A stretch of 64,000 nucleotides of DNA from the NCBI GenBank assembly GCA_038040455.1, contig JBBPIH010000008.1, positions 88,006 to 152,005 on the forward strand, written 5' to 3'. The notes under the pieces were generated by a model that searched no databases, was not told where the DNA came from, and was given only the letters and a program-made list of their open reading frames with translations. Position 1 is the stretch's first letter. Every line of letters begins with the position of its first letter. The stretch is from Acidobacteriota bacterium (lineage in GTDB: Bacteria; Acidobacteriota; Blastocatellia; UBA7656). Position numbers and translations under genes: made by a program. This document shows positions 5,549 through 55,891 of this stretch, one piece after another.

Positions 5549-5874
5549 GCATGAGTGGAAGAGAACTACCCGTACTCGGGCTTCGTTTCGCAGATATCCG
5601 ACGTGGAGCGATGTGTTGATTCCCGAGAACGCGGCTCTCGGATTGGAGTGACTACAGCCTGACCAGCGACTTCTCAAAATCCTTCACCGTCGGCGGCCGC
5701 TTGCCCCTCCCTGGTGCGATCGAGTGTCCCTCGTCTTTCAGGCGATGGGATTGCGCCTTCATTTGAATGATCTTGCCTTTCGAGCTTCTCCCGCCAGGAT
5801 GTGCGCGACGCGAATTTTTGGGGCATCCTCTCACCTCGCTGAGATTAGTTACGTTAGTAGTAACTTAATGGAAA

Positions 5875-5970
5875 AACCTGTACGGGCGTCCCGCTGTGGG
5901 CGCCCCTTGATCGTCGGTCGCTCTGTTCGCGGAGGAGGGGCCCCCACCGAGGGACGCCCGTACAGGTTCA
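5875..5970. repeat. Palindromic repeat family C (CTGTACGGGCGNCCC...GGGNCGCCCGTACAG long hairpin)
   Basis: cctgtacgggcgtccc...gggacgcccgtacagg inverted arms of about 16 bp around a roughly 60-nt centre. A second family member lies at 16180-16275. Confidence 0.45.
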
Positions 5971-5989
5971 TCATTCATCTTCGTCAAGA

Positions 5990-11974: not shown

Positions 11975-12166
11975 CCCATCGGCCCGCGTGACGACAGGGT
12001 GGGGACTCGGATGTCTCAATCGGTTGAGTCCCGGCGGGATGTTTGATAATAGCCGAGCACTTCAGTGCTGGGGGAGAAAGCAGCTGCGGACGAGCAGTCC
12101 CGAAGGGACGGCTGACGTGCGGTCAGTTTTTCAGTCGTCCCTACGTGACTCGGAGCGAGAGCATCT

Positions 12167-15100
12167 TCAATCAACCCCTCGAAGTCCGTTTCGTTGTGCT
12201 GCCTCTGACAGCCAAGCGCCGCCCGGTAAACATAGTTCGCGGAAGTTGCACATCAGGCAATGCTCGGCGGGCCGAGCCGGGAAACTCGCGGGCGCCGACG
12301 AAGAAACTATGCTCAGCATCGCGTCATCAATCGCCTTCGCACACGCATCGCGCCCGACCAGTTCAGCGGGCAAGCTCACCTCTACATCGGGATCCAGGAA
12401 GTGGAGCGTTACTCGCACACTTCTGGCTTCGGGTATCAACTCGTGCGCGGCCAAAGCATAAGCTTGCATCTGCAATTGATAGTCAGCGGCTGCGGCTTGG
12501 ACCTCGGCCTGCACCAGAAGATCTCGATCAGACGATGCGCCGGACGCGGGCTTTAAGAACGCGAACGACAGTTGTCCCCGCTCAGCCGTCCGTACTCCTT
12601 TGCCAGGGCTCCGTCGCTCGTAGTCAGTGGCATGTTGTTGGGCGGCACGAGCATCGGGCTTCCTTCCTCGAAAACGATTTGTTTTGAAGTCGATGATCTC
12701 GACGCTCCAGCCATCACCCGATGGGATTGGAACGACCACCAACTTGTCTATAGTGCCAGTCAGAATCCCGAGCGGACGCCTCAATCGAAACCGCTGCTCG
12801 CTGAAGACGCCGGGTGAATGATGCGTGATGCGTGACGCGTGATTCTGGGCCGCACGCGCCGATTCGATTCGCTGACGCACTTTGCTGGCAACATACTTCC
12901 GCGCGAGCGGCAGCAGATCGTGAATGGCTCTCTCAGAATCGATCTCAAAGACCCGGTCGCCAAGCTCCGCCGCTCTTTGCCTGAGCACAACTTCAAAGCT
13001 GCTCCTCAAGGAATCGTGAAGATCATCGCCTTCGCTGAACCGTTCGCAGAAGCGATGAATCACCGCGCCCCGGAGCGTCGCCGTAAGATTCGCAGGAGGC
13101 TCGGGAGCCTCGGCGTCGTTCCATACCGCGACCTCTTCCTCGCTGGGTGTGTGGAGCAGCCGATCGAAGTAATACTGACGCGGACAGCGGTGATAGTTCA
13201 GAAGCTGAGTTACGCTGAAGCGGTGAAGGCCGCTTCCGCGCTCCGCCTCCACCGGTTCGAGTAGCGGCACCCGTTCCTCCTTCGGCGCCGCCAAATCTTT
13301 TTCTGGTTGGACCGCTGCGGGGTCTTCTCGGAGCTGACTTGATGTCTGAAGCGCAGCGTCACGCAGATTCAGCGTAAGCCGGACTTCGACTTCTTCGCTC
13401 GGTCCTAGAACTCCGCTCTCGATTTCCCTCGCGATCCCGAGCGCTTTGCATATCCACCCAAGCCACGAACTCCGCAAGCTTGCGAGGTCTTTCGCAGCCC
13501 CCGACAGTATCAGCCGGTCTTGCGCGCGAGTAGCCGCAACGTACAGCAATCGCATGCTTTCGAATTCGTCGCGCCGCTTCGCCCGTTCGGCAAAAGTGAT
13601 GAATGCGGCCCCAGCAACCAGCTTGCCTCTGCCGTCGGGCACCTTCAAAGTCAGACCGCGATGCCGGTCCAGCATCCACCACTCACGCCTATTGTCGGGC
13701 TGGCGGTGAAGGTCCGGGATAATCACCACCGGAAACTCGAGCCCCTTCGACTGATGAATCGACATCAGGCGAACCGCATCGGCCGAATCGTCGATCTGGC
13801 CTTCGCTCTCGCGCCCGCCGGTTTCTTCGAAATCACGGACGAAGCGCACGAAGTCGCGAATCAGATGGGCACCCGAACGCTCGAATCGCTCCGCGAGCGT
13901 GAACATCTTCTCGATATTGGCCAGCCGCTGCGCGCCGTCGAAGTTTGCTGCAGCGACGGTCCGATACTCTGATGTTTCGACCGCAAATCTCAAAAGCTCC
14001 GACAGCCGCGATCGCTTCGCTCGCCCGATGAACTCCTCCAATAACTCTCTCGCACGGTCCAGCGCCGGCCGCTCGGAAGAATCGATGAGGTCGATCAACT
14101 CGTGGCTGCGAAGAGCGTCAAGGAGAGGCCGAACGCCGCTACGTTTTTGCATACGTCCGCCTTCCTCGACTCCCGCTCCTAACGCCGCGCATCGAAGCGC
14201 CAACAGGGCATCATCCGACAACCCGCAAAGTGGCGAGCGAAGCACCGCCGCCAGCGCCACCTCGTCGGTCTTATTGTCGAGGAAACGCAAAAGCTGAATG
14301 AAGTCGGTGATCTCCTCGCGCGCGTAAAAGCCTTTCCCCTCGACGGTCACATACGGAATGCCTGCGCGGCGAAACGCCGATTCGTAGAGGTGCACTTCGG
14401 TCATCGCTCGAAACAGCAGCGCGATGTCGCGGTACTCGAGGTTGCGTTGGGCCCCTGCTTCACCACTTGAGCGGCCGGGCGAACTGATCGATTCCTTCCC
14501 TACAAGTGAGATGATCCGCGCCGCCAACTGCTCGGCGTCACGTTCCCGAGGCGACTGCGGCGAGGATCCCTCTTCCGATTTGTCATTCGTCATCAGGTCA
14601 ACAAGCAGCTCGACGACAGGCGGCGCGTCTGCGTCTTCGCGAGCGACGATGCTTGCTTCGTGCGCGACGTAACCAAGCTCGTTCAGGTCATCAACGGCGA
14701 GGCTGGCGTCGCGCTGGAATACGTGCTCGAACAGGAGGTTGAAGAAACTAATCAGCGGGCGCTGGCTCCGGAAGTTTTGGTTAAGCGGCATCGGCACGCC
14801 CTTCTGTGATTCGATCCTCGCACTCATCTCGCGAAACACGTCCACGTCCGCTCCTCTGAAGCCGTAGATAGATTGCTTGCGGTCACCGACGATAAACAGG
14901 TTCGCGCGTGGCGTAGACTTTAGTCTGCGCTCCTCGGTCGGCCTATCACTGGACTCGCGCAGACTAGCGTCCAAGCCACTTAGCGCTAGTCTCGCCATCA
15001 ACTCGCGCTGCAAGCCATTGGTGTCCTGGAACTCGTCGACCAGGAAGAAGCGATATCGACCCGCCGTTCTGCGCATGACTTCGGGATGTTCTTCGAGCAG

Positions 15101-16156
15101 CCGAAGCGCTCGCAATTGCAGATCATCAAAATCGAGTAGCGACCTGCGTCGCTTCTCTTCGTCGAGGCGCCGCTCGATTCCCTCGACAACTTTGATCAGC
15201 TCGAGCGCATACGTCTTAGCGTGGAGGTCAAAAAAAGTCTGCGAAACGCGGCCGCGAAGATTGTCCTCCCAGACTAACTCATCAAGCGTTTTGACCAGCT
15301 CACTGATTTTGCCCTGTGCCTTGGGTCGAGCTGCGTCGCGGAATTCTTGAATTGCTTCGGAAAACTCTGCGAGTGATGTCGACTCCGAGACGCCGCACAG
15401 AAATTCCCGAAACGACGGCCAACGCCGCTCGGCCACCTTTCGTTTCTCTTCGGCCGCAGCCGGGAGCCCGCGAGCCTGGATGAAGTCGCGCATTTTCGCG
15501 GTCAGCTCGTCTACCGCTCGCTTGTAGTCCTCTATTGTCTTGTGGCTCTTCTCCGTTTCCGCCTCGAGCTTTTCGTGCGTCAATCCCTGGTTGCGCATCG
15601 AGCGATAGACGCCGATCAGCCCTCGAGCGAGCCTCATGCGGCCAACGCCCGCCGCGAGCCGGGTGATCGCTTGATGCTTTGCGCTGATGAACTCGGTGAG
15701 CGACTCCTCGACGACCGCTTCTTCGAGCATCGCCGACTGATGTGCATCCAGCAACGCGAACTGCGGATCGATGTCGGCCTCGACCGGGAACTCGCGCAAC
15801 AGCCGCGCGCAAAAGCCGTGGATGGTTGTGATGATCGCGCCGTCGAGCGTCCGCTTGTGACGCATCCACCTTGCGCGTTCAATCGGGGCTGCCAACAACA
15901 AGAGGCTGTCCAGCTCACTTCGGAGGCGCTCGCGCATCTCGTTAGCCGCGCGGTTGGTGAAAGTGATGGCGACGATCTGATCTACGCTGATGTCGTGCGT
16001 CCGAAGAATGTGCAGGTAGCGCTCGACGAGCACGGTGGTCTTGCCAGCGCCGGGACCGGCGGTCACGGAGACGTGCCGGTCGAGCGTGTGCGCAGCCTGG
16101 CGCTGTTCGGGCTTCAGCTCGCGTGTTTTGCTTTCAACCACAACGTTCATAATCAA
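12167..16156 (-). CDS. AddA-like ATP-dependent helicase-nuclease (UvrD/Rep helicase core plus C-terminal RecB-type PD-(D/E)XK nuclease), pair 1
   Basis: N-terminal Walker A VTAGPGAGKTTVL and UvrD motifs (AITFTNRAANEM, FLVDEFQDTN, IVGDRKQSIYGFRGA). The C-terminus has a RecB nuclease motif GTIDKLVVV...IIDFKTN. Length 1329 aa. Confidence 0.8.
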   Translation of the reverse strand: MIMNVVVESKTRELKPEQRQAAHTLDRHVSVTAGPGAGKTTVLVERYLHILRTHDISVDQIVAITFTNRAANEMRERLRSELDSLLLLAAPIERARWMRHKRTLDGAIITTIHGFCARLLREFPVEADIDPQFALLDAHQSAMLEEAVVEESLTEFISAKHQAITRLAAGVGRMRLARGLIGVYRSMRNQGLTHEKLEAETEKSHKTIEDYKRAVDELTAKMRDFIQARGLPAAAEEKRKVAERRWPSFREFLCGVSESTSLAEFSEAIQEFRDAARPKAQGKISELVKTLDELVWEDNLRGRVSQTFFDLHAKTYALELIKVVEGIERRLDEEKRRRSLLDFDDLQLRALRLLEEHPEVMRRTAGRYRFFLVDEFQDTNGLQRELMARLALSGLDASLRESSDRPTEERRLKSTPRANLFIVGDRKQSIYGFRGADVDVFREMSARIESQKGVPMPLNQNFRSQRPLISFFNLLFEHVFQRDASLAVDDLNELGYVAHEASIVAREDADAPPVVELLVDLMTNDKSEEGSSPQSPRERDAEQLAARIISLVGKESISSPGRSSGEAGAQRNLEYRDIALLFRAMTEVHLYESAFRRAGIPYVTVEGKGFYAREEITDFIQLLRFLDNKTDEVALAAVLRSPLCGLSDDALLALRCAALGAGVEEGGRMQKRSGVRPLLDALRSHELIDLIDSSERPALDRARELLEEFIGRAKRSRLSELLRFAVETSEYRTVAAANFDGAQRLANIEKMFTLAERFERSGAHLIRDFVRFVRDFEETGGRESEGQIDDSADAVRLMSIHQSKGLEFPVVIIPDLHRQPDNRREWWMLDRHRGLTLKVPDGRGKLVAGAAFITFAERAKRRDEFESMRLLYVAATRAQDRLILSGAAKDLASLRSSWLGWICKALGIAREIESGVLGPSEEVEVRLTLNLRDAALQTSSQLREDPAAVQPEKDLAAPKEERVPLLEPVEAERGSGLHRFSVTQLLNYHRCPRQYYFDRLLHTPSEEEVAVWNDAEAPEPPANLTATLRGAVIHRFCERFSEGDDLHDSLRSSFEVVLRQRAAELGDRVFEIDSERAIHDLLPLARKYVASKVRQRIESARAAQNHASRITHHSPGVFSEQRFRLRRPLGILTGTIDKLVVVPIPSGDGWSVEIIDFKTNRFRGRKPDARAAQQHATDYERRSPGKGVRTAERGQLSFAFLKPASGASSDRDLLVQAEVQAAAADYQLQMQAYALAAHELIPEARSVRVTLHFLDPDVEVSLPAELVGRDACAKAIDDAMLSIVSSSAPASFPARPAEHCLMCNFRELCLPGGAWLSEAAQRNGLRGVD

Positions 16157-16179: not shown

Positions 16180-16275
16180 TGCTTGTACGGGCGGCCCTCC
16201 GTTGCCGCCCCTCTTTGACCGCTTAATCATTTCGCGCGAGAAGGGGCGGCCACGGAGGGCCGCCCGTACAAGCTT
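16180..16275. repeat. Palindromic repeat family C copy in the addB-addA intergenic spacer
   Basis: cttgtacgggcggccctccgttgccgcccc ... ggggcggccacggagggccgcccgtacaag is a near-perfect inverted repeat of about 30 bp on each arm. It resembles the element at 5875-5970. Confidence 0.5.
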
Positions 16276-16284
16276 TCCCAGCTG

Positions 16285-19200
16285 CTACACCTCTCCGATG
16301 CCTTCCTTTCTTCTTATCCGAAACTTCTCGTAGCGGCACACCGCCGAGAAGTCGCAGTGTGGGCAGGTAGCTTCTGGGGCTGACGGGTCGACCTGGAATT
16401 GGCCTGCGCGTATGCCGTCGATGAATTCCCAGACGCGAGCTTCCATCTCGGCGCGAATCCTGTTCCACTCTTCGTCTGTTAGCGTTGAAGACGTCCTCTT
16501 ACTCACTGCGGTATAGGCTTGTTGCACGGCTCGATACAAACCTTGATTACGGCGACTCGAGCCTCCCCTCATCGTGTAGTAGCCACCGCCGGCGATCGCA
16601 CTTCCGGGCATGAACAGTTGTTCGAGCGCCGCGAGATAGAGGTGAAGCTGCAAGGCTCGGCCCTCTTGCATGTCGTCGAGCCCAGCACCCTTTGAGAGCT
16701 TGTAGTCATAAGCAATCGCGGTCCCATCGTTCGCAATGTCGACTCTGTCAATCTGCCCGCGAACGCGCACGGTTTCACTCGGATCGTCCGAACCGCGACG
16801 GAGTTCGAGACTCTGATCAGTTGAGCCCGGATCAACCGCGTCCCCTCTCATCCCAAACGCGAGCTCGAAGTAAGCAGGTCTTACATCCTTGGATCGCGTC
16901 TGCTCTTGAACAGTCAGCTCATAATCCAGCACCTGTTCAAGCAGCAGCTTCCTTATCTGTTTGTCGATTTGCCAGACTTGAGGATTGAGAGGCGGCACGG
17001 CACGCTCGTGCTCGTAGAACACGGCATCAGCAACCTCGCCAAGCTCGCGTCTAAGCTCCGCCCGATCAAAGTCGGTAAGCCGCTCGCGTCGATGGCGTGC
17101 GAAGAATCGCCTGAGCGCTTCGTGCAACAGGCTCCCTGCATCAAGCGACGTCAGATCGAGCGCGGCTTCACCTCGCGGATCAAGTTTGAGCACTTTCTCG
17201 GCGAAGAACTTGAACGGGCACTTGCCGTAGAGGCTCAGCTCGCTTGCGCTGAAGGCGTGATCCGCGCCGTACTGCTCCTGGAGTCTTGCAATCAAACTCG
17301 CGGCGCTGATCACGCCGTCAAACTTTCCGAACCACCGGCTCGCTCGCTCGCGTTCTATCGCAATGCGCCGCCGCGCCGATTCGCTCAAGTATCCTCGCTC
17401 GGACGCCGTCGCCATCAACCGAGCGATGACTTCTTCCGGAAAGTTCCCTTCTCTTTGAGCTCGATGCCGGTGCCTCTCTTCCTGCCGCACTAACATCACT
17501 GCAAGCTCCGAGCTTCGCGACGAATCAAACAGCGTGCGCCCATCGAAATCGCCTCGCACAACCTCTTTCGTAATCGGGCCTGGCGCAACTGCCCGACCAA
17601 GCTCTTCGATGTAATAAGACGCTACGGTCTCCGAGCCGTCTTCGAGCACCATCGATCTGCTCAGATAAAGCCGCTCGGTCGCGCGGCAAGCCGCTTGATA
17701 GAAATAGTGCTCCTCCTTGAGCAGCGTGTCGGGCGAGATGTCCTCGAGCGTCAGACCGTATTGCTTCAATCGCTCGCGCTCTTCGTGCGGATATATCCAG
17801 TCGCGCGAGGCGCGCAACGGGAAGCCGCCTTCGACTAGCCCGGCGATGAACACTGCACGAAAGCGCAATCCGCGAACATCGGTTACTTCGAGCACTTTCA
17901 ATCCATCCGGATCGGCATGGCTAGTCACCAGCGATTGCGCTCGCAAGCATCGCATCGCTTCATCGAGAAAAGTTGTGAGCTTGATCGTTGATACCGAGTC
18001 GCCTTCACTCACAACGCCTTCGGACATCTCGATGCTTCGGGCGGCGGCGGCAAGGGCGCGGCGCAATCCTTCGAGCCCGCGCAGATCGAGCGTCAACGCC
18101 GGAAGCTCGGCATCCGCAACAGAACCGGGCTGTGAGCCGCGGACCCCGCCGGCAAACTGAAGCTGATCAAGGAGCCGCATAATCGCATCTCGCAGCTCGA
18201 GGGGAGGAGCTTCGCGAGTTGCTCCTCCGATTAACCGGGCGGTGCGCTCGACAACGAGAGCTGACCACGCGATCAACGCGGGGTGAACTTCGCGCGAGGG
18301 CCTGGGTTTTCGCTCAGAGCCTGGAAGCGGGACGTCCACTGGCTCCGCGCGTTCGACGCGCCGCTTTACAGCGCTGGTCGCTTCGCCCGAAGCTGCGGCG
18401 CTCTCGTCATCTGAGTCTGATTCATCTTCGAGATCAGTTGCGAGGAGCTTCTCTAAGTCCGGCGCGGGCCGTAGAGCAGTCAATTGCCGTGCGCGCTTCA
18501 GCCATCTGTCTGCGCGCAACTCGCCGCCCGCGAATGCGATCACGTTCTCAAGCTCGTCGGCGTCCCAGTTGCCGACGTTTGTTTCGTCGGGCCCTCTAAG
18601 AAATCCCGCGATGCCCAGCAGATGTTCGTGCTCTTGATTGAAGCGTTCGCGCAATGCATCCAACTCGGTTTCCGATAAGCGGAAGTAGCCGGACTTCACC
18701 AGGTCCGCCAGCTCGCTCATCTTTGCGGTTGTACCTTCCTCGCGATTCAGCTCGATCAACATCTCAAACAGTTTTAGAGCCGCGCGCACTGCCGGCACTT
18801 CTATCAGCGCGGTGCGGCGGCCGAGCGCGCAAGGAATTCGCTCCTCCTGGAAGACCCGAGCGATCGTGTCCTCATAGGAAGCGCGCTCGCGGACGACAAC
18901 CGCGACGTCGCTCGGGCGGTAACCTTCAAGCAACACCAGCCGCTTGATCTCTTTCGCTATCTCGCGGATCTCAGTCTCCCGGTTTCCACAATCGAGCAGA
19001 CTGATGCTGAGCGATTTCTCGGGCGAGTCCTGGGAGCGCAGGCATCCTTGCCTGCCTGGCGTTGCGCGAGAAGAGCCAGGCAGGGATGCCTGCGCTCCCA
19101 GGCCGGCAGCTTCGGCCGCGCACTGCTCATTGGCGGATGAATTGAACAATCGCTCGCGCAGGAGAGACAGCCCAGCCGCCACCGGCTGGGCTTCAGCGTC

Positions 19201-20109
19201 TTCGCGTACTTCGAAGTCGGCGATAGATTTCAGTTGATCAATCGTTCGCTCGAACGGGCGAAATATCTCCGCGTTGCGCTGGTCTCGGTTGAGGTTGACG
19301 ATCACCTCGGCGATCTGTGGGATTAGCAGCCTGAGCATCTCCCCCTGAACCGGAGTGAAGTCAAAGAAGCCATCAACCACCAGCAACCGAACGTCGGAAA
19401 GCCACGGCACGCTCACTTTCCTTCCGTCGACTTCGCCGCGCAAAACTTCCAGGGCGCGCAACTGATCGGCGTCGTCGTCAGTCAGGCCGAAGCGGTCGAG
19501 CGCAGCCGCATACGCCGAGTAGATCAATCCAATCTCTCGATCGAAATCGATCTGGAGCGGAATAGGGTGCTCGGTCGCGGCCGTTGAACCGCTGCTCTCT
19601 TGAGCGAGCGTCGGGTAGAGGTCGCGGGCACGAGCTTCAACGATCGCGTTAAACTCGGCTTGAGTCTTCGCCGCGCGTTGAATCTCGCCTATGAGCTTTG
19701 CGATGGTGTTGATGCAGCCGTCTCGATGCGCGAGCGGCGCGATGGCTCTAAGCCTGCCCTCGCGCGCCAGGCGCTTGATGATCTGCGAAATCAAGCTGCG
19801 TCTTACTGGAAGCTCTTCTTGATCGATTGCGATTCGCGGAGCAAGCGGCAAGCCGGTCTCAACTTCGAGGGTGGTCGCCAGGACGAACCGCGAAAACCCT
19901 CGAAACAGGTGCACCGGCAGCGAGCCCCACACGCCGCGAACCGTGTCGCCGTCGAGCAAACGACCAGCGGCTAGCTCGAGCAACGGGCGCGAAGCGGCGA
20001 GGTACAGCAGCCCTTCAGCCGGTCCGGTGGCAAGCACCTCAGAGGCGCGCTCGAGCAGCCGCTCACGATTGTTGCTCAGGATGGGGGCAAGCCAAATTTC
20101 CCTGGCCAA
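16285..20109 (-). CDS. AddB-like helicase-nuclease subunit (degenerate helicase N-domain, C-terminal PD-(D/E)XK nuclease with Cys cluster), pair 1
   Basis: 1274 aa, lying directly upstream of and co-directional with the AddA-like gene (addB-addA order as in Bacillus). The C-terminal CPHCDFSAVCRYEKF resembles the AddB Fe-S cysteine cluster. No N-terminal Walker A is visible. Confidence 0.7.
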   Translation of the reverse strand: MAREIWLAPILSNNRERLLERASEVLATGPAEGLLYLAASRPLLELAAGRLLDGDTVRGVWGSLPVHLFRGFSRFVLATTLEVETGLPLAPRIAIDQEELPVRRSLISQIIKRLAREGRLRAIAPLAHRDGCINTIAKLIGEIQRAAKTQAEFNAIVEARARDLYPTLAQESSGSTAATEHPIPLQIDFDREIGLIYSAYAAALDRFGLTDDDADQLRALEVLRGEVDGRKVSVPWLSDVRLLVVDGFFDFTPVQGEMLRLLIPQIAEVIVNLNRDQRNAEIFRPFERTIDQLKSIADFEVREDAEAQPVAAGLSLLRERLFNSSANEQCAAEAAGLGAQASLPGSSRATPGRQGCLRSQDSPEKSLSISLLDCGNRETEIREIAKEIKRLVLLEGYRPSDVAVVVRERASYEDTIARVFQEERIPCALGRRTALIEVPAVRAALKLFEMLIELNREEGTTAKMSELADLVKSGYFRLSETELDALRERFNQEHEHLLGIAGFLRGPDETNVGNWDADELENVIAFAGGELRADRWLKRARQLTALRPAPDLEKLLATDLEDESDSDDESAAASGEATSAVKRRVERAEPVDVPLPGSERKPRPSREVHPALIAWSALVVERTARLIGGATREAPPLELRDAIMRLLDQLQFAGGVRGSQPGSVADAELPALTLDLRGLEGLRRALAAAARSIEMSEGVVSEGDSVSTIKLTTFLDEAMRCLRAQSLVTSHADPDGLKVLEVTDVRGLRFRAVFIAGLVEGGFPLRASRDWIYPHEERERLKQYGLTLEDISPDTLLKEEHYFYQAACRATERLYLSRSMVLEDGSETVASYYIEELGRAVAPGPITKEVVRGDFDGRTLFDSSRSSELAVMLVRQEERHRHRAQREGNFPEEVIARLMATASERGYLSESARRRIAIERERASRWFGKFDGVISAASLIARLQEQYGADHAFSASELSLYGKCPFKFFAEKVLKLDPRGEAALDLTSLDAGSLLHEALRRFFARHRRERLTDFDRAELRRELGEVADAVFYEHERAVPPLNPQVWQIDKQIRKLLLEQVLDYELTVQEQTRSKDVRPAYFELAFGMRGDAVDPGSTDQSLELRRGSDDPSETVRVRGQIDRVDIANDGTAIAYDYKLSKGAGLDDMQEGRALQLHLYLAALEQLFMPGSAIAGGGYYTMRGGSSRRNQGLYRAVQQAYTAVSKRTSSTLTDEEWNRIRAEMEARVWEFIDGIRAGQFQVDPSAPEATCPHCDFSAVCRYEKFRIRRKEGIGEV
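19028..19101. repeat. Palindromic repeat family D (CCTGGGAGCGCAGGCATCCTTGCCTGCC...GGCAGGGATGCCTGCGCTCCCAGG) embedded in-frame inside the AddB-like CDS
   Basis: A 31-bp arm at 19028-19058 and its reverse complement at 19075-19101 form a 74-bp hairpin-capable element. It is translated as ...LPGSSRATPGRQGCLRSQDSPEK... within the protein. A second copy lies in an intergenic region at 48873-48947. Confidence 0.6.
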
Positions 20110-20127: not shown

Positions 20128-20580
20128 GTAGCATAGACTTTAGTCTGTGCCGGCGATTGCGCTTGTAAGCGGACCGACCCGACACAGAGGTATAGTAGTC
20201 GGTCAGATTGAATCTGATACGTGCGTTCGCCGATTTTCACCCACGCTGGTGGTGGATCGTTCGTACTCACCTCCACCGATGCCTCGACCAGCTTTTTCTG
20301 AATCCCACCAACGCAGTTGGTGGATTGTTCATACACTGCCTACAACCAGACTGCGGTGGAATAGGCTGAGTATGAAGCATCCACCAACTGCGTTGGTGGG
20401 ATTCGGGATGAGAACGCCGACGTCTGTCTGTAGGCTGAGTATGAAACATCCACCAACTGCGTTGGTGGGATTCCAAAGGCTATCCTTGGGCATCACAATC
20501 ACGGGACTACTAGCCTGTAGTCTCTGCCCGGTAACTCCGCTACATCGCAATCGCCGGGTACAGACTAAAGTCTATGCTAC
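20128..20580. mobile_element. MITE-like non-autonomous element: about 33-bp terminal inverted repeats flanking a cluster of family A hairpin repeats
   Basis: The left end gtagcatagactttagtctgtgccggcgattgc (20128-20160) is a near-perfect inverted copy of the right end gcaatcgccgggtacagactaaagtctatgctac (20546-20580). The interior carries at least 3-4 copies of the CCACCAACGCAGTTGGTGG hairpin unit in both orientations. There is no long ORF. It lies between the addB-like start and the rmuC stop. Confidence 0.5.
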
Positions 20581-37369: not shown

Positions 37370-37590
37370 GATGACACACAAGTATTCAGGTGCAATCCCA
37401 CCAACGCAGTTGGTGGTGCGTTCATACTCAGCCTACACGCGACACTGGGCGGGGGTCCCGAATCCCACCAACGCAGTTGGTGGATCGTTCATATCCGACC
37501 TGGCTATGATCAGCCGGAAAGTGAATCCGAGCGGAGAGTTAGGCTGGGTATGAACGAACCACCAACTGCGTTGGTGGGATTATCGTCACT
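37370..37590. repeat. Family A palindromic repeat array (CCACCAACGCAGTTGGTGG hairpin units, mixed orientation)
   Basis: Copies at about 37393-37437 and 37458-37500 (one orientation) and 37546-37585 (inverted). Shared flanks are gaatccc...ttgttcatactcagcctaca. The leader caggctgctgaaaaagtcgatgacacacaagt is conserved with the array at 47360. Confidence 0.6.
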
Positions 37591-47389: not shown

Positions 47390-47860
47390 AGTGCTCACGG
47401 CTAATTCCACCAACGCAGTTGGTGGTTTGTTCATACTCGGCTTACACGGACGCGAAGCCCCGCTCCCGAATCCCACCAACGCAGTTGTTGGATTGTTCAT
47501 ACTCAGCCTTAATCTGGACTGGCGCGCGCGCCCGTCCCGAATCCCACCAACGCAGTTGGTGGATTGTTCATACTCAGCCTACATCTGGACTGCCGCGCGC
47601 CCGTCCCGAATCCCACCAACGCAGTTGGTGGATTGTTCATACCCGACCTCGGATGCAACAGCCATTCTGCAGTTCTCTAGTCCCCATCAACGCAGTTGGT
47701 AGAGGATTTGGACCCGACCTGCCAAGGCGACCTCACTGACACTTTAGGCTGGATATGAACGATCCACCAACTGCGTTGGTGGGATTCGGGACGCGCGCGC
47801 GCCAGTCCCGTTGTAGGCTGAGTATGAACGATCCACCAACTGCGTTGGTGGGATTGTGGG
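47390..47860. repeat. Family A palindromic repeat array (largest cluster, at least 7 units, both orientations)
   Basis: Units at about 47407, 47468, 47540, 47612 (forward), a degenerate one at about 47690, and inverted units at about 47752 and 47822. The inter-unit segments are similar to each other (tctggactgScgcgcgcccgtcccg). Confidence 0.6.
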
Positions 47861-48851: not shown

Positions 48852-48872
48852 CGAAATAGACCGCGGATGAAC

Positions 48873-48947
48873 CCTGGGAGCGCAGGCATCCCTGCCTGCC
48901 TCTTCCAGCGCAAACGCTAAGCAGGCAAGGATGCCTGCGCTCCCAGG
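48873..48947. repeat. Family D palindromic repeat, intergenic copy
   Basis: cctgggagcgcaggcatccctgcctgcc ... gcaggcaaggatgcctgcgctcccagg, the same element as at 19028-19101. Confidence 0.55.
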
Positions 48948-48993
48948 ATGGATCCGTGGTCTATTTGACGAAAGGGAGCGAGGGGGAGTTCAC

Positions 48994-55770: not shown

Positions 55771-55847
55771 CGGGGGAATATGGTAGCGGCGGGAGGACTT
55801 GAACCTCCGACCTTGGGGTTATGAATCCCACGCTCTAACCACCTGAG
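55771..55847 (-). tRNA. tRNA with CAU anticodon (tRNA-Met; possibly tRNA-Ile2 if lysidine-modified)
   Basis: Reverse complement GGCGGCGTAGCTCAGGTGGTTAGAGCGTGGGATTCATAACCCCAAGGTCGGAGGTTCAAGTCCTCCCGCCGCTACCA folds as a cloverleaf: 7-bp acceptor stem, anticodon loop TTCATAA and T-arm GGAGG/CCTCC with loop TTCAAGT. The CCA end is encoded. Confidence 0.8.
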
Positions 55848-55891
55848 CTACGCCGCCATATCCTTTACTATCTATTACTTACGCGCTTGGC

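Follow-up and report, generated by a model that had tools for sequence, protein, structure and literature searches.

We analyzed a 64,000-nt stretch of an Acidobacteriota contig (JBBPIH010000008.1, positions 88,006 to 152,005), hereafter the window, in which a gene for an AddB-like helicase-nuclease subunit carries a 74-nt palindrome of a repeat family that we call family D. The initial annotation had proposed both the AddB-like identity and the in-frame position of the palindrome, and both were borne out. The open reading frame (ORF; 16285..20109) is uninterrupted over 1274 aa, and the palindrome keeps the reading frame. Pfam domains PDDEXK_1 (2e-38), UvrD_C, and ADDB_N were found on the protein, and a profile built from its orthologs matched Bacillus subtilis AddB (PDB 3U44_B) at 8e-31. 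The gene has the make-up of addB: an N-terminal AddB domain, a UvrD_C-like domain, a C-terminal PD-(D/E)XK nuclease with iron-sulfur (Fe-S) cysteines, and an adjacent addA. The nuclease motif CPFKFF and the Fe-S cysteines CPHCDFSAVC are both present. Compared with four orthologs, the window gene has a ratio of nonsynonymous to synonymous substitution rates (dN/dS) of 0.15-0.17, and addB is under purifying selection. Because the ORF is intact, the nuclease and Fe-S motifs are kept, and dN/dS is at this level, addB is not a pseudogene; the earlier suggestion of a recently inactivated gene is contradicted, and the annotation as a working addB is unchanged.

The addB palindrome and its absence from close orthologs

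The palindrome spans 19029-19102. It had been placed one base away, at 19028-19101, with perfect arms of 27-31 bp; the palindrome is real and its 74-nt length stands, while its arms proved to be 29 nt long, 93% complementary, and 16 nt apart, with the outer 19 nt pairing perfectly and the remainder imperfectly. In a separate hairpin scan of the window that allowed two mismatches, the stem reached 19027-19104, with 28 of 31 positions paired. The element comprises addB codons 337-360 plus one base of each adjoining codon and reads LGAQASLPGSSRATPGRQGCLRSQ on the minus strand, about 24 aa rich in Gly, Ala, Ser, Pro, Gln, and Arg. The peptide given previously was in frame and of about this length, and was shifted by a few residues. 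Predicted peptides spanning the insert are AAGLGAQASLPGSSR and GCLRSQDSPEK. The folding check that had been proposed gave -70.4 kcal/mol over 111 nt for the sense RNA of the addB copy (z = -6.1 against shuffles). A terminator reading of this hairpin was rejected because no U-run lies 3' of it on the sense strand, and an Rfam scan of the window matched no family to the element.

Shuffled sequence would be expected to contain the 19-mer CCTGGGAGCGCAGGCATCC 0.03 times, and the window contains it four times, as both arms of two family-D copies, the one in addB and an intergenic one at 48873-48947 that had been reported earlier and was found again. For the intergenic copy, the folding energy is -84 kcal/mol (z = -12.4), to which an enclosing outer inverted repeat contributes. 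This outer repeat, AAATAGACCGCGGAT / ATCCGTGGTCTATTT at 48854-48966, has the family-D copy exactly at its center, which suggests one palindromic repeat nested inside another, and its arm motif was found again in loci L029 and L047.

AddB was compared in an alignment of 40 sequences, an ortholog survey of 198, and a hairpin scan of 83 AddB genes. In the alignment, the element lies in a hypervariable stretch flanked by the conserved LRERLFN and (I/L)xLL(D/E)C. The closest ortholog, P0002/L001 (86% identical by BLASTP over residues 1-1274, 88% in the multiple alignment; synonymous divergence, dS, 0.39), lacks the element: its linker is ANEQCADEAFAEAPPESSLSISLLDC, and that of the window is ANEQCAAEAAG[LGAQ...LRSQ]DSPEKSLSISLLDC. 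The more distant P0005, an outgroup at dS 0.84, has the same uninserted linker architecture. A blastn comparison of the window with L001 breaks at 19031/19108, where 76 nt in the window stand against 7 nt in L001. The ortholog alignment that had been suggested as a check therefore shows the window gene to be longer by a net 69 nt (23 codons). Since P0002/L001 and P0005 share one architecture without the insert, the element appears to have been gained in the window's lineage after its split from the closest sampled relative. A clean 74-nt insertion was considered and rejected on the same 76 nt against 7 nt, and the exact junctions cannot be reconstructed. There is no hairpin of note at the empty site in the L001 linker.

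The linker that hosts the element is as short as 18-20 aa in some orthologs and reaches about 150 aa in others. In B. subtilis AddB, the aligned segment is at about residues 280-310 and directly precedes the strand-helix with which the next domain begins. An AlphaFold2 model of AddB residues 1-620, built with 32 sequences (mean predicted local distance difference test score, pLDDT, 65), gave pLDDT below 50 at residues 91-100, 171-183, 308-371, and 546-605, and insert residues 337-360 fall inside the segment 308-371. Most likely, the insert makes a flexible surface loop, one of the outcomes that the initial annotation had foreseen. All six frames are free of stop codons in the family-D arms, as they are in the addB copy. 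We take the insert to be a tolerated and probably translated insertion.

Table 1. Features of the addB region and the second family-D copy, in window coordinates
Feature	Position	Strand	Remarks
AddB-like helicase-nuclease subunit gene, 1274 aa, intact	16285..20109	minus	Pfam, profile match, motifs
AddA-like partner gene, UvrD helicase and PD-(D/E)XK nuclease domains	12167..16156	minus	directly downstream of addB
Length-variable inter-domain AddB linker hosting the element, ~aa 323-370	19000..19143	minus	between LRERLFN and LLDC
Family-D REP doublet (REPIN-like palindrome), 74 nt, in frame in addB	19029..19102		absent from closest ortholog L001
5' arm (gene sense), REP unit CCTGGGAGCGCAGGCATCCCTGCCTGGCT	19074..19102	minus	own small hairpin GCAGGCA-N4-TGCCTG
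Spacer between arms, 16 nt	19058..19073		
3' arm (gene sense), inverted REP unit ...AGGCAGGCAAGGATGCCTGCGCTCCCAGG	19029..19057	minus	
Second family-D doublet, intergenic, 75 nt	48873..48947		nested within outer 14-15-bp inverted repeat 48854-48966

Family D and its association with a transposase

The family-D element is an inverted doublet of a repetitive extragenic palindromic (REP) unit of about 26 nt (CTGGGAGCGCAGGCATCCYTGCCTGC). Across 32 complete elements, the unit CTGGGAGCGCAGGCATCC(C/T)TGCCTGC and its inner hairpin GCAGGCA-N3-4-TGCCTGC are conserved; conservation is limited to the arms, the spacer is hypervariable, and the total length runs from 59 to 141 nt. The unit is thus short, palindromic, and conserved in sequence over many copies, as in REPs. 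Both window copies and the 30 others are inverted doublets, and the arm-spacer-arm architecture is that of a REP doublet, or REPIN. Such doublets form hairpins and are reportedly mobilized by REP-associated tyrosine transposases (RAYTs; Bertels & Rainey 2011; Nunvar et al. 2010). REPINs are by definition extragenic, usually lying downstream of genes.

An 18-mer of the arm was searched in genome contigs, with one genome per species. At least 117 stretches carried it, under labels that were mostly Blastocatellia, Pyrinomonadaceae, Chloracidobacterium, and "Acidobacteriota." Several metagenome-assembled genomes (MAGs) hold at least 6-7 family-D stretches per genome, and most family-D copies lie outside long ORFs. 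Two MAGs labeled "uncultured Clostridia bacterium" also have several family-D elements, CAZJQQ01 (L047, L052, L055, L058, and L059) and CAZOOE01 (L069 and L204). The taxonomic labels of both bins look wrong; that of CAZOOE01 is doubtful because this bin carries an AddB ortholog, P0004, that is 77% identical to the window AddB.

In L011, from the Pyrinomonadaceae MAG ES-bin-189, a 202-aa ORF (1724-2332) has inverted family-D units on both sides (1662-1705 and 2346-2391), and its flanks are perfectly inverted over about 45 nt on each side. This ORF matches the REP-associated tyrosine transposase model NF047646 of NCBIfam at 88.3 bits (cut-off 80), as well as Pfam Y1_Tnp. A RAYT between inverted units of its own family is the REPtron arrangement (PMC3733652), seen here in a related genome, and a decayed relative of the L011 RAYT adjoins a D arm in L078. 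Because inverted D units flank the L011 gene, family D appears to be a RAYT-associated REP family. Together with the absence of the element from the closest ortholog and the presence of the family in multiple copies in many genomes, this supports the earlier view of a mobile REP/MITE-like insertion (MITE, miniature inverted-repeat transposable element).

A Y1_Tnp gene in L002 (1757-2602) was also considered as the family-D transposase and was rejected, having a different flanking repeat and no relatives in other loci. L002 (1-6507), which is the contig of ortholog P0006, holds a second AddAB-like pair upstream of the first, and this 281-aa Y1_Tnp gene lies between the two pairs, flanked by its own, different direct repeats.

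Several known classes of element share features with family D. Family D shares with REPINs and REPtrons its pairs of inverted REP units with a short spacer and, in L011, a RAYT between inverted units, and its copies may prove as numerous and as mainly intergenic as theirs, with 2 in the 64 kb of the window; in contrast to these, the addB copy is intragenic and probably translated, and the RAYT link is drawn from related genomes. Bacterial MITEs such as Correia/NEMIS, ERIC, BOX, and Nezha (PMC10969869) are likewise small, non-autonomous repeats with inverted ends and occasional in-frame fusions, but they come from DDE-type insertion sequences and make target-site duplications, whereas no duplication was found in the flanks of 32 family-D copies and the associated enzyme is of the Y1/HUH type. 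The classic in-frame palindromes are the Rickettsia palindromic elements (RPEs; Ogata et al. 2000 Science 290:347; 2002 Genome Res 12:808; reviewed in PMC10969869), which resemble family D as selfish palindromes in frame in unrelated housekeeping genes, where they are translated and judged fold-compatible (PMC10969869). RPEs were first reported at about 150 bp (RPE-1), occur only in Rickettsia, and have a conserved peptide each and no known transposase, whereas family D is 59-141 nt long, conserved only in its ~26-nt arms, read in at least two frames, and has units flanking a RAYT. Rather than a single peptide, it yields LGAQASLP/GRQGCLRSQ in AddB and L107 and GSAGILPA/GRMPALP in L071 and L030. 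Reading frames and host phylum, not a sequence comparison, set it apart from RPEs.

Di Nocera, De Gregorio & Rocco (2013, BMC Genomics 14:522, PMC3733652) described REPs and REP dimers that lie wholly within ORFs and encode 20-30 aa. These intragenic REPs are often in replication and repair genes (uvrA, uvrB, uvrD, recBCD, polA, and dnaE2), with different REPs at about one site of Xanthomonas recB, and the authors discussed both neutrality in tolerant linkers or loops and a possible non-fortuitous link. Family D is similar in its short palindromic units, often inverted dimers, placed in frame in genes. A GTAG or CGTC tag marks the published families, which are from Proteobacteria, Opitutus, and others, whereas family D is untagged, starts CCTGGGAGC, and is from Acidobacteriota. 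Neither GTAG nor CGTC was found at either end of family-D units, which begin (C)CTGGGAGC, and this absence places family D outside the two tagged superfamilies. The host AddB, a RecBCD analogue, is also not among the genes in that study. In-frame palindromes in essential repair genes had been called rare in the initial annotation, a claim that fails given the published in-frame REPs in uvrA/B, recBCD, and polymerase genes (PMC3733652) and the frequent AddB cases in this clade. New here are the phylum, the host AddB, and the REP family itself, which was undescribed; repair genes with in-frame REPs were already known. A literature search on such elements in Blastocatellia found none, the matches being unrelated judging by titles and abstracts.

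Recurrent palindromes in AddB and other genes

Three further genes carry family D in frame, each Pfam-confirmed. In a PurL-like gene (L071), it is read GSAGILPA...GRMPALP; in an alpha/beta hydrolase gene (L107), it lies between two N-terminal strands and is read LGAQASLP...GRQGCLRSQ; and in a gene for an FHA-trypsin protein (L047), it is in the C-terminal tail. Seemingly intragenic copies in L023, L059, and L119 were discarded, as they lie upstream of likely start codons.

Within AddB, 12 orthologs with 70-82% identity carry family-D peptides in the linker. Members of the P0006 clade have the element directly abutting "FNPT," at a distance of 13 codons from the window's position, and in L030, a Pyrinomonadales AddB that is 48% identical, it is in another reading frame (PGSAGILPA). 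Because of this offset and this change of frame, insertions of family D into the linker were probably independent events in the window lineage, the P0006 clade, and L030. P0067/L130 has a family-D doublet at a different AddB loop, at aa ~660. Apparent matches at aa ~721 were set aside as false positives of the peptide pattern, arising from a conserved RCLRSQ. At 1440-1660 of L030, the left D arm and a long spacer are duplicated in tandem with a 108-nt period, and the right arm is degenerate.

Other palindrome families are found in the same linker, with readings that include GGHGGPP, DKLKHIGH, GRMPAVR/QDAGAP, GAHLRVRP/GRHTGLPLQ, SSPTVREG, and QVxNLRH. Altogether, in-frame palindromes of about seven families occupy the linker and at least two other AddB loops, in about one-quarter of the 198 orthologs. 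The scan of 83 AddB genes placed strong stems at three sites, aa ~88, ~350, and ~660-705, and the idea of a single hotspot was accordingly replaced by that of at least three recurrent sites; those at aa ~88 and ~350 coincide with low-confidence loops of the AlphaFold2 model. Three loops and about seven families amount to a much denser recurrence than is described for the intragenic REPs above (PMC3733652).

Additional observations concern individual families. One further family (GTGTCAGAAGCCCGACCGTCAGGGAGGGC), read VSEARPSGRA...PSLTVGLL, is in frame at the AddB loops at aa ~88 and ~702 in a whole sub-clade (L143, L156, L159, L168, L170-L172, L187, and L194), and up to 29 of 30 stem positions are paired. 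A family with the arms TGTACGGGCGGCCCTCCGT...GCCGCCCC and stems of 30-35 nt occurs in the window at 16181-16273 and 5871-5972, and it is in frame in the AddB linker of L126, where it is read GGPLWPP...GGHGGPP. In L206 (P0008), the entire 210-nt in-frame linker at about 1270-1480 is one near-perfect hairpin of ~65 bp (-165 kcal/mol), in which the outer arm motif CCTGGGAGCGCAGGC is present four times on the left and three times on the right, read LGAQA four times and LRSQG three times. A similar symmetric arm extension was seen in an intergenic copy, L062 2170-2380. A third repeat family of the window has arms AATCCCACCAACGCAGTTGGTGGAT, each itself a palindrome, and stems of up to 45 nt; its three copies (20300-20473, 37461-37581, and 47683-47783) all apparently lie outside long ORFs.

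Around addB, the 128-nt spacer from the addB stop to the addA start holds the 16181-16273 copy, and a 20-nt stem with 17 paired positions and a terminator-like look is found just 3' of the addA stop, at 12096-12150. Another 20-nt stem (18 paired) with a 31-nt loop lies at 17250-17320 in a conserved part of addB, at aa ~942 (FDGVISAA...GADHAFSA). No repeat family seen here matches it, none of the other 82 AddB genes scanned has the stem at or above the cut-off of 15 matches, and it may be due to chance. The only Rfam match in the window is a minus-strand tRNA gene at 55784-55857.

Origin and persistence of the addB insert

We consider it likely that the addB insert is an in-frame REPIN-type doublet of a RAYT-mobilized family, living in the addB linker as a tolerated selfish passenger. 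On this explanation, two inverted REP units of ~26 nt around a short variable spacer make up an element whose family would have spread in Blastocatellia/Pyrinomonadaceae-like Acidobacteriota, mobilized in trans, as single-stranded hairpin DNA, by a RAYT of the HUH/Y1 type. One copy would have entered addB after the lineage split from its closest sampled relative, landing in the linker, disordered and variable in length, that joins the N-terminal helicase-like domain to the next (UvrD_C-like) one. There it would be translated as a loop of ~24 aa, with the protein staying under purifying selection. The insert may have survived because the linker is disordered and variable, the arms are stop-free in six frames, and the net length change is 69 nt, this last having kept the frame. 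It is best seen as a passenger of this kind, neither an adaptation nor a gene-killing event.

Several results weigh against this explanation as it stands. The RAYT link comes from two related genomes (L011 and L078) rather than from the source genome. The 74 nt of the element are not a multiple of 3 and, with 76 nt against 7 nt in L001, simple cut-and-paste fails at the junctions; a small accompanying deletion or a later adjustment must therefore be assumed. The flanks of the 32 copies show no target-site duplication, direct repeats, or conserved target motif. Strong hairpins of other families are also concentrated in AddB: the family-D genome-scan loci, which add up to 829 kb and include 492 kb of long ORFs, contained in these ORFs 2 strong non-D hairpins, one of them in AddB (L030), and 80 AddB orthologs (298 kb) contained 19, a density ~16-fold that of other long ORFs (binomial p = 8e-7). 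These counts ignore shared ancestry, and the 19 hairpins are carried by 12 genes only, which inflates the enrichment; it is suggestive, not established. Finally, the arms evolve slowly. In-frame arms are 87-96% identical where identity at 4-fold sites is 0.48-0.86, and pure neutral decay after insertion does not explain this conservation.

The pattern of arm divergence is star-like around a consensus. The window and P0006 arms are identical at 52 of 54 positions, with 4-fold sites 51% identical and dS ~1.06; members of the P0006 clade, which share position and frame, have arm identities of 87-96% and 4-fold identities of 0.56-0.86. Arm substitutions are unpaired, with no sign of compensatory change, and the right arm has decayed in P0003 and P0004. 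Such conservation could stem from recent independent insertion, from homing that recurs, from conversion by other copies, or from template switching between arms. Selection for the hairpin in addB is possible, an idea opposed by the many orthologs without a hairpin.

One alternative treats the linker as an active target, to which new REPs home at hairpins or REP remnants, or where conversion from other copies overwrites in-frame ones; both the recurrence and the consensus-like arms would then be explained. The star-like divergence, independent of that of the host gene, fits this, since the window and P0006 arms match as closely at dS ~1.06 as do those of P0006 and P0010 at much lower divergence. 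Also in line with it are the intergenic window copy, which occupies the exact center of the outer inverted repeat with the arm motif seen in L029 and L047; the co-occurrence of different families at the same AddB sites; and flanks that, in many copies, extend the palindrome and form no direct repeats. REPs are also reported to be targets of other insertion elements (PMC1525189). Yet the empty site in L001 has no notable hairpin and the flanks of 32 copies have no conserved target sequence, and the AddB sites match low-confidence loops (91-100 and 308-371) as far as modeled, which a pure tolerance filter predicts equally. We judge active targeting unlikely as the explanation, and it is compatible with the tolerated passenger rather than exclusive of it.

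A second alternative is that the hairpin has been domesticated and is kept for a function in addB, either as an mRNA structure (ribosome slowing between domains, stability, or addB/addA stoichiometry), in keeping with the possible regulatory RNA of the initial annotation, or as a DNA structure that modulates the expression or activity of the enzyme. About seven unrelated palindrome families in the linker, in about a quarter of orthologs, arms more conserved than neutral 4-fold sites, the symmetrically extended ~65-bp hairpin that fills the 210-nt linker of L206 (-165 kcal/mol), and the excess of strong non-D hairpins per kb in AddB orthologs over other long ORFs of related genomes would all be expected of a useful hairpin, and Di Nocera et al. 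doubted that REPs are placed in repair genes by chance (PMC3733652). Against it, P0002, P0005, and many others have linkers of 18-26 aa without a hairpin, the right arm has plainly decayed in P0003 and P0004, and unpaired substitutions come with no compensatory changes. The same families are, moreover, overwhelmingly intergenic, with 164 of 169 strong hairpins in the family-D genome-scan loci outside the interior of long ORFs; the lack of a U-tract excludes a terminator, and the AddB enrichment is inflated by common descent, as noted above. Domestication therefore seems improbable to us.

Equally doubtful, in our view, is the broader proposition that REPINs in these Acidobacteriota preferentially settle and are actively maintained in AddB, and perhaps in break-repair genes generally, with arms held near consensus by RAYT homing or conversion or by selection. 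If true, it would tie REPIN biology functionally to the enzyme that acts on broken or hairpin-containing DNA, through self-limiting regulation of AddAB by an intragenic hairpin or through a dependence of REPIN persistence on modified AddAB.

Two remaining readings have very little in their favor. An ancestral palindromic linker, or one ancient insertion passed down vertically to every carrier, would suit the 12 orthologs (70-82%) that have LGAQASLP...GRQGCLRSQ-type peptides in the same linker, orientation, and frame, but it is already contradicted by the common uninserted architecture of the two nearest relatives, by the 13-codon offset from the P0006 clade and the different frame in L030, by arms 52/54 identical to P0006 where 4-fold sites are 51% identical, and by identical arms in an intergenic copy of the same window and in at least 117 other places; we give it almost no weight. 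The other reading, that the host gene is dead or dying or that the element is an assembly artifact arising where repeats caused a misjoin in a MAG contig, is scarcely credible either: repeats can cause misassembly and a hairpin of -70 kcal/mol within a gene looks harmful, but the 1274-aa ORF is uninterrupted and collinear with orthologs on both sides (86% over residues 1-1274), dN/dS is 0.15-0.17, the catalytic and Fe-S motifs are kept, and independent assemblies from other samples have the same kind of in-frame element.

Read as a tolerated passenger, the single copy in the window is one more case of selfish palindromes surviving in genes as translated loops. The interest comes less from this copy than from the clade-wide recurrence in AddB, with three loops, about seven REP families, and arms that evolve more slowly than neutral sites, which is the more useful result. 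The AddB system bears on the question raised in 2013 of why REPs often sit in replication and repair genes, and it permits tests of whether the transposase homogenizes REPIN arms. It also carries a warning for annotation: LGAQASLP, GGHGGPP, DKLKHIGH, and GRMPAVR in Acidobacteriota proteins are repeat-derived sequences, not conserved motifs.

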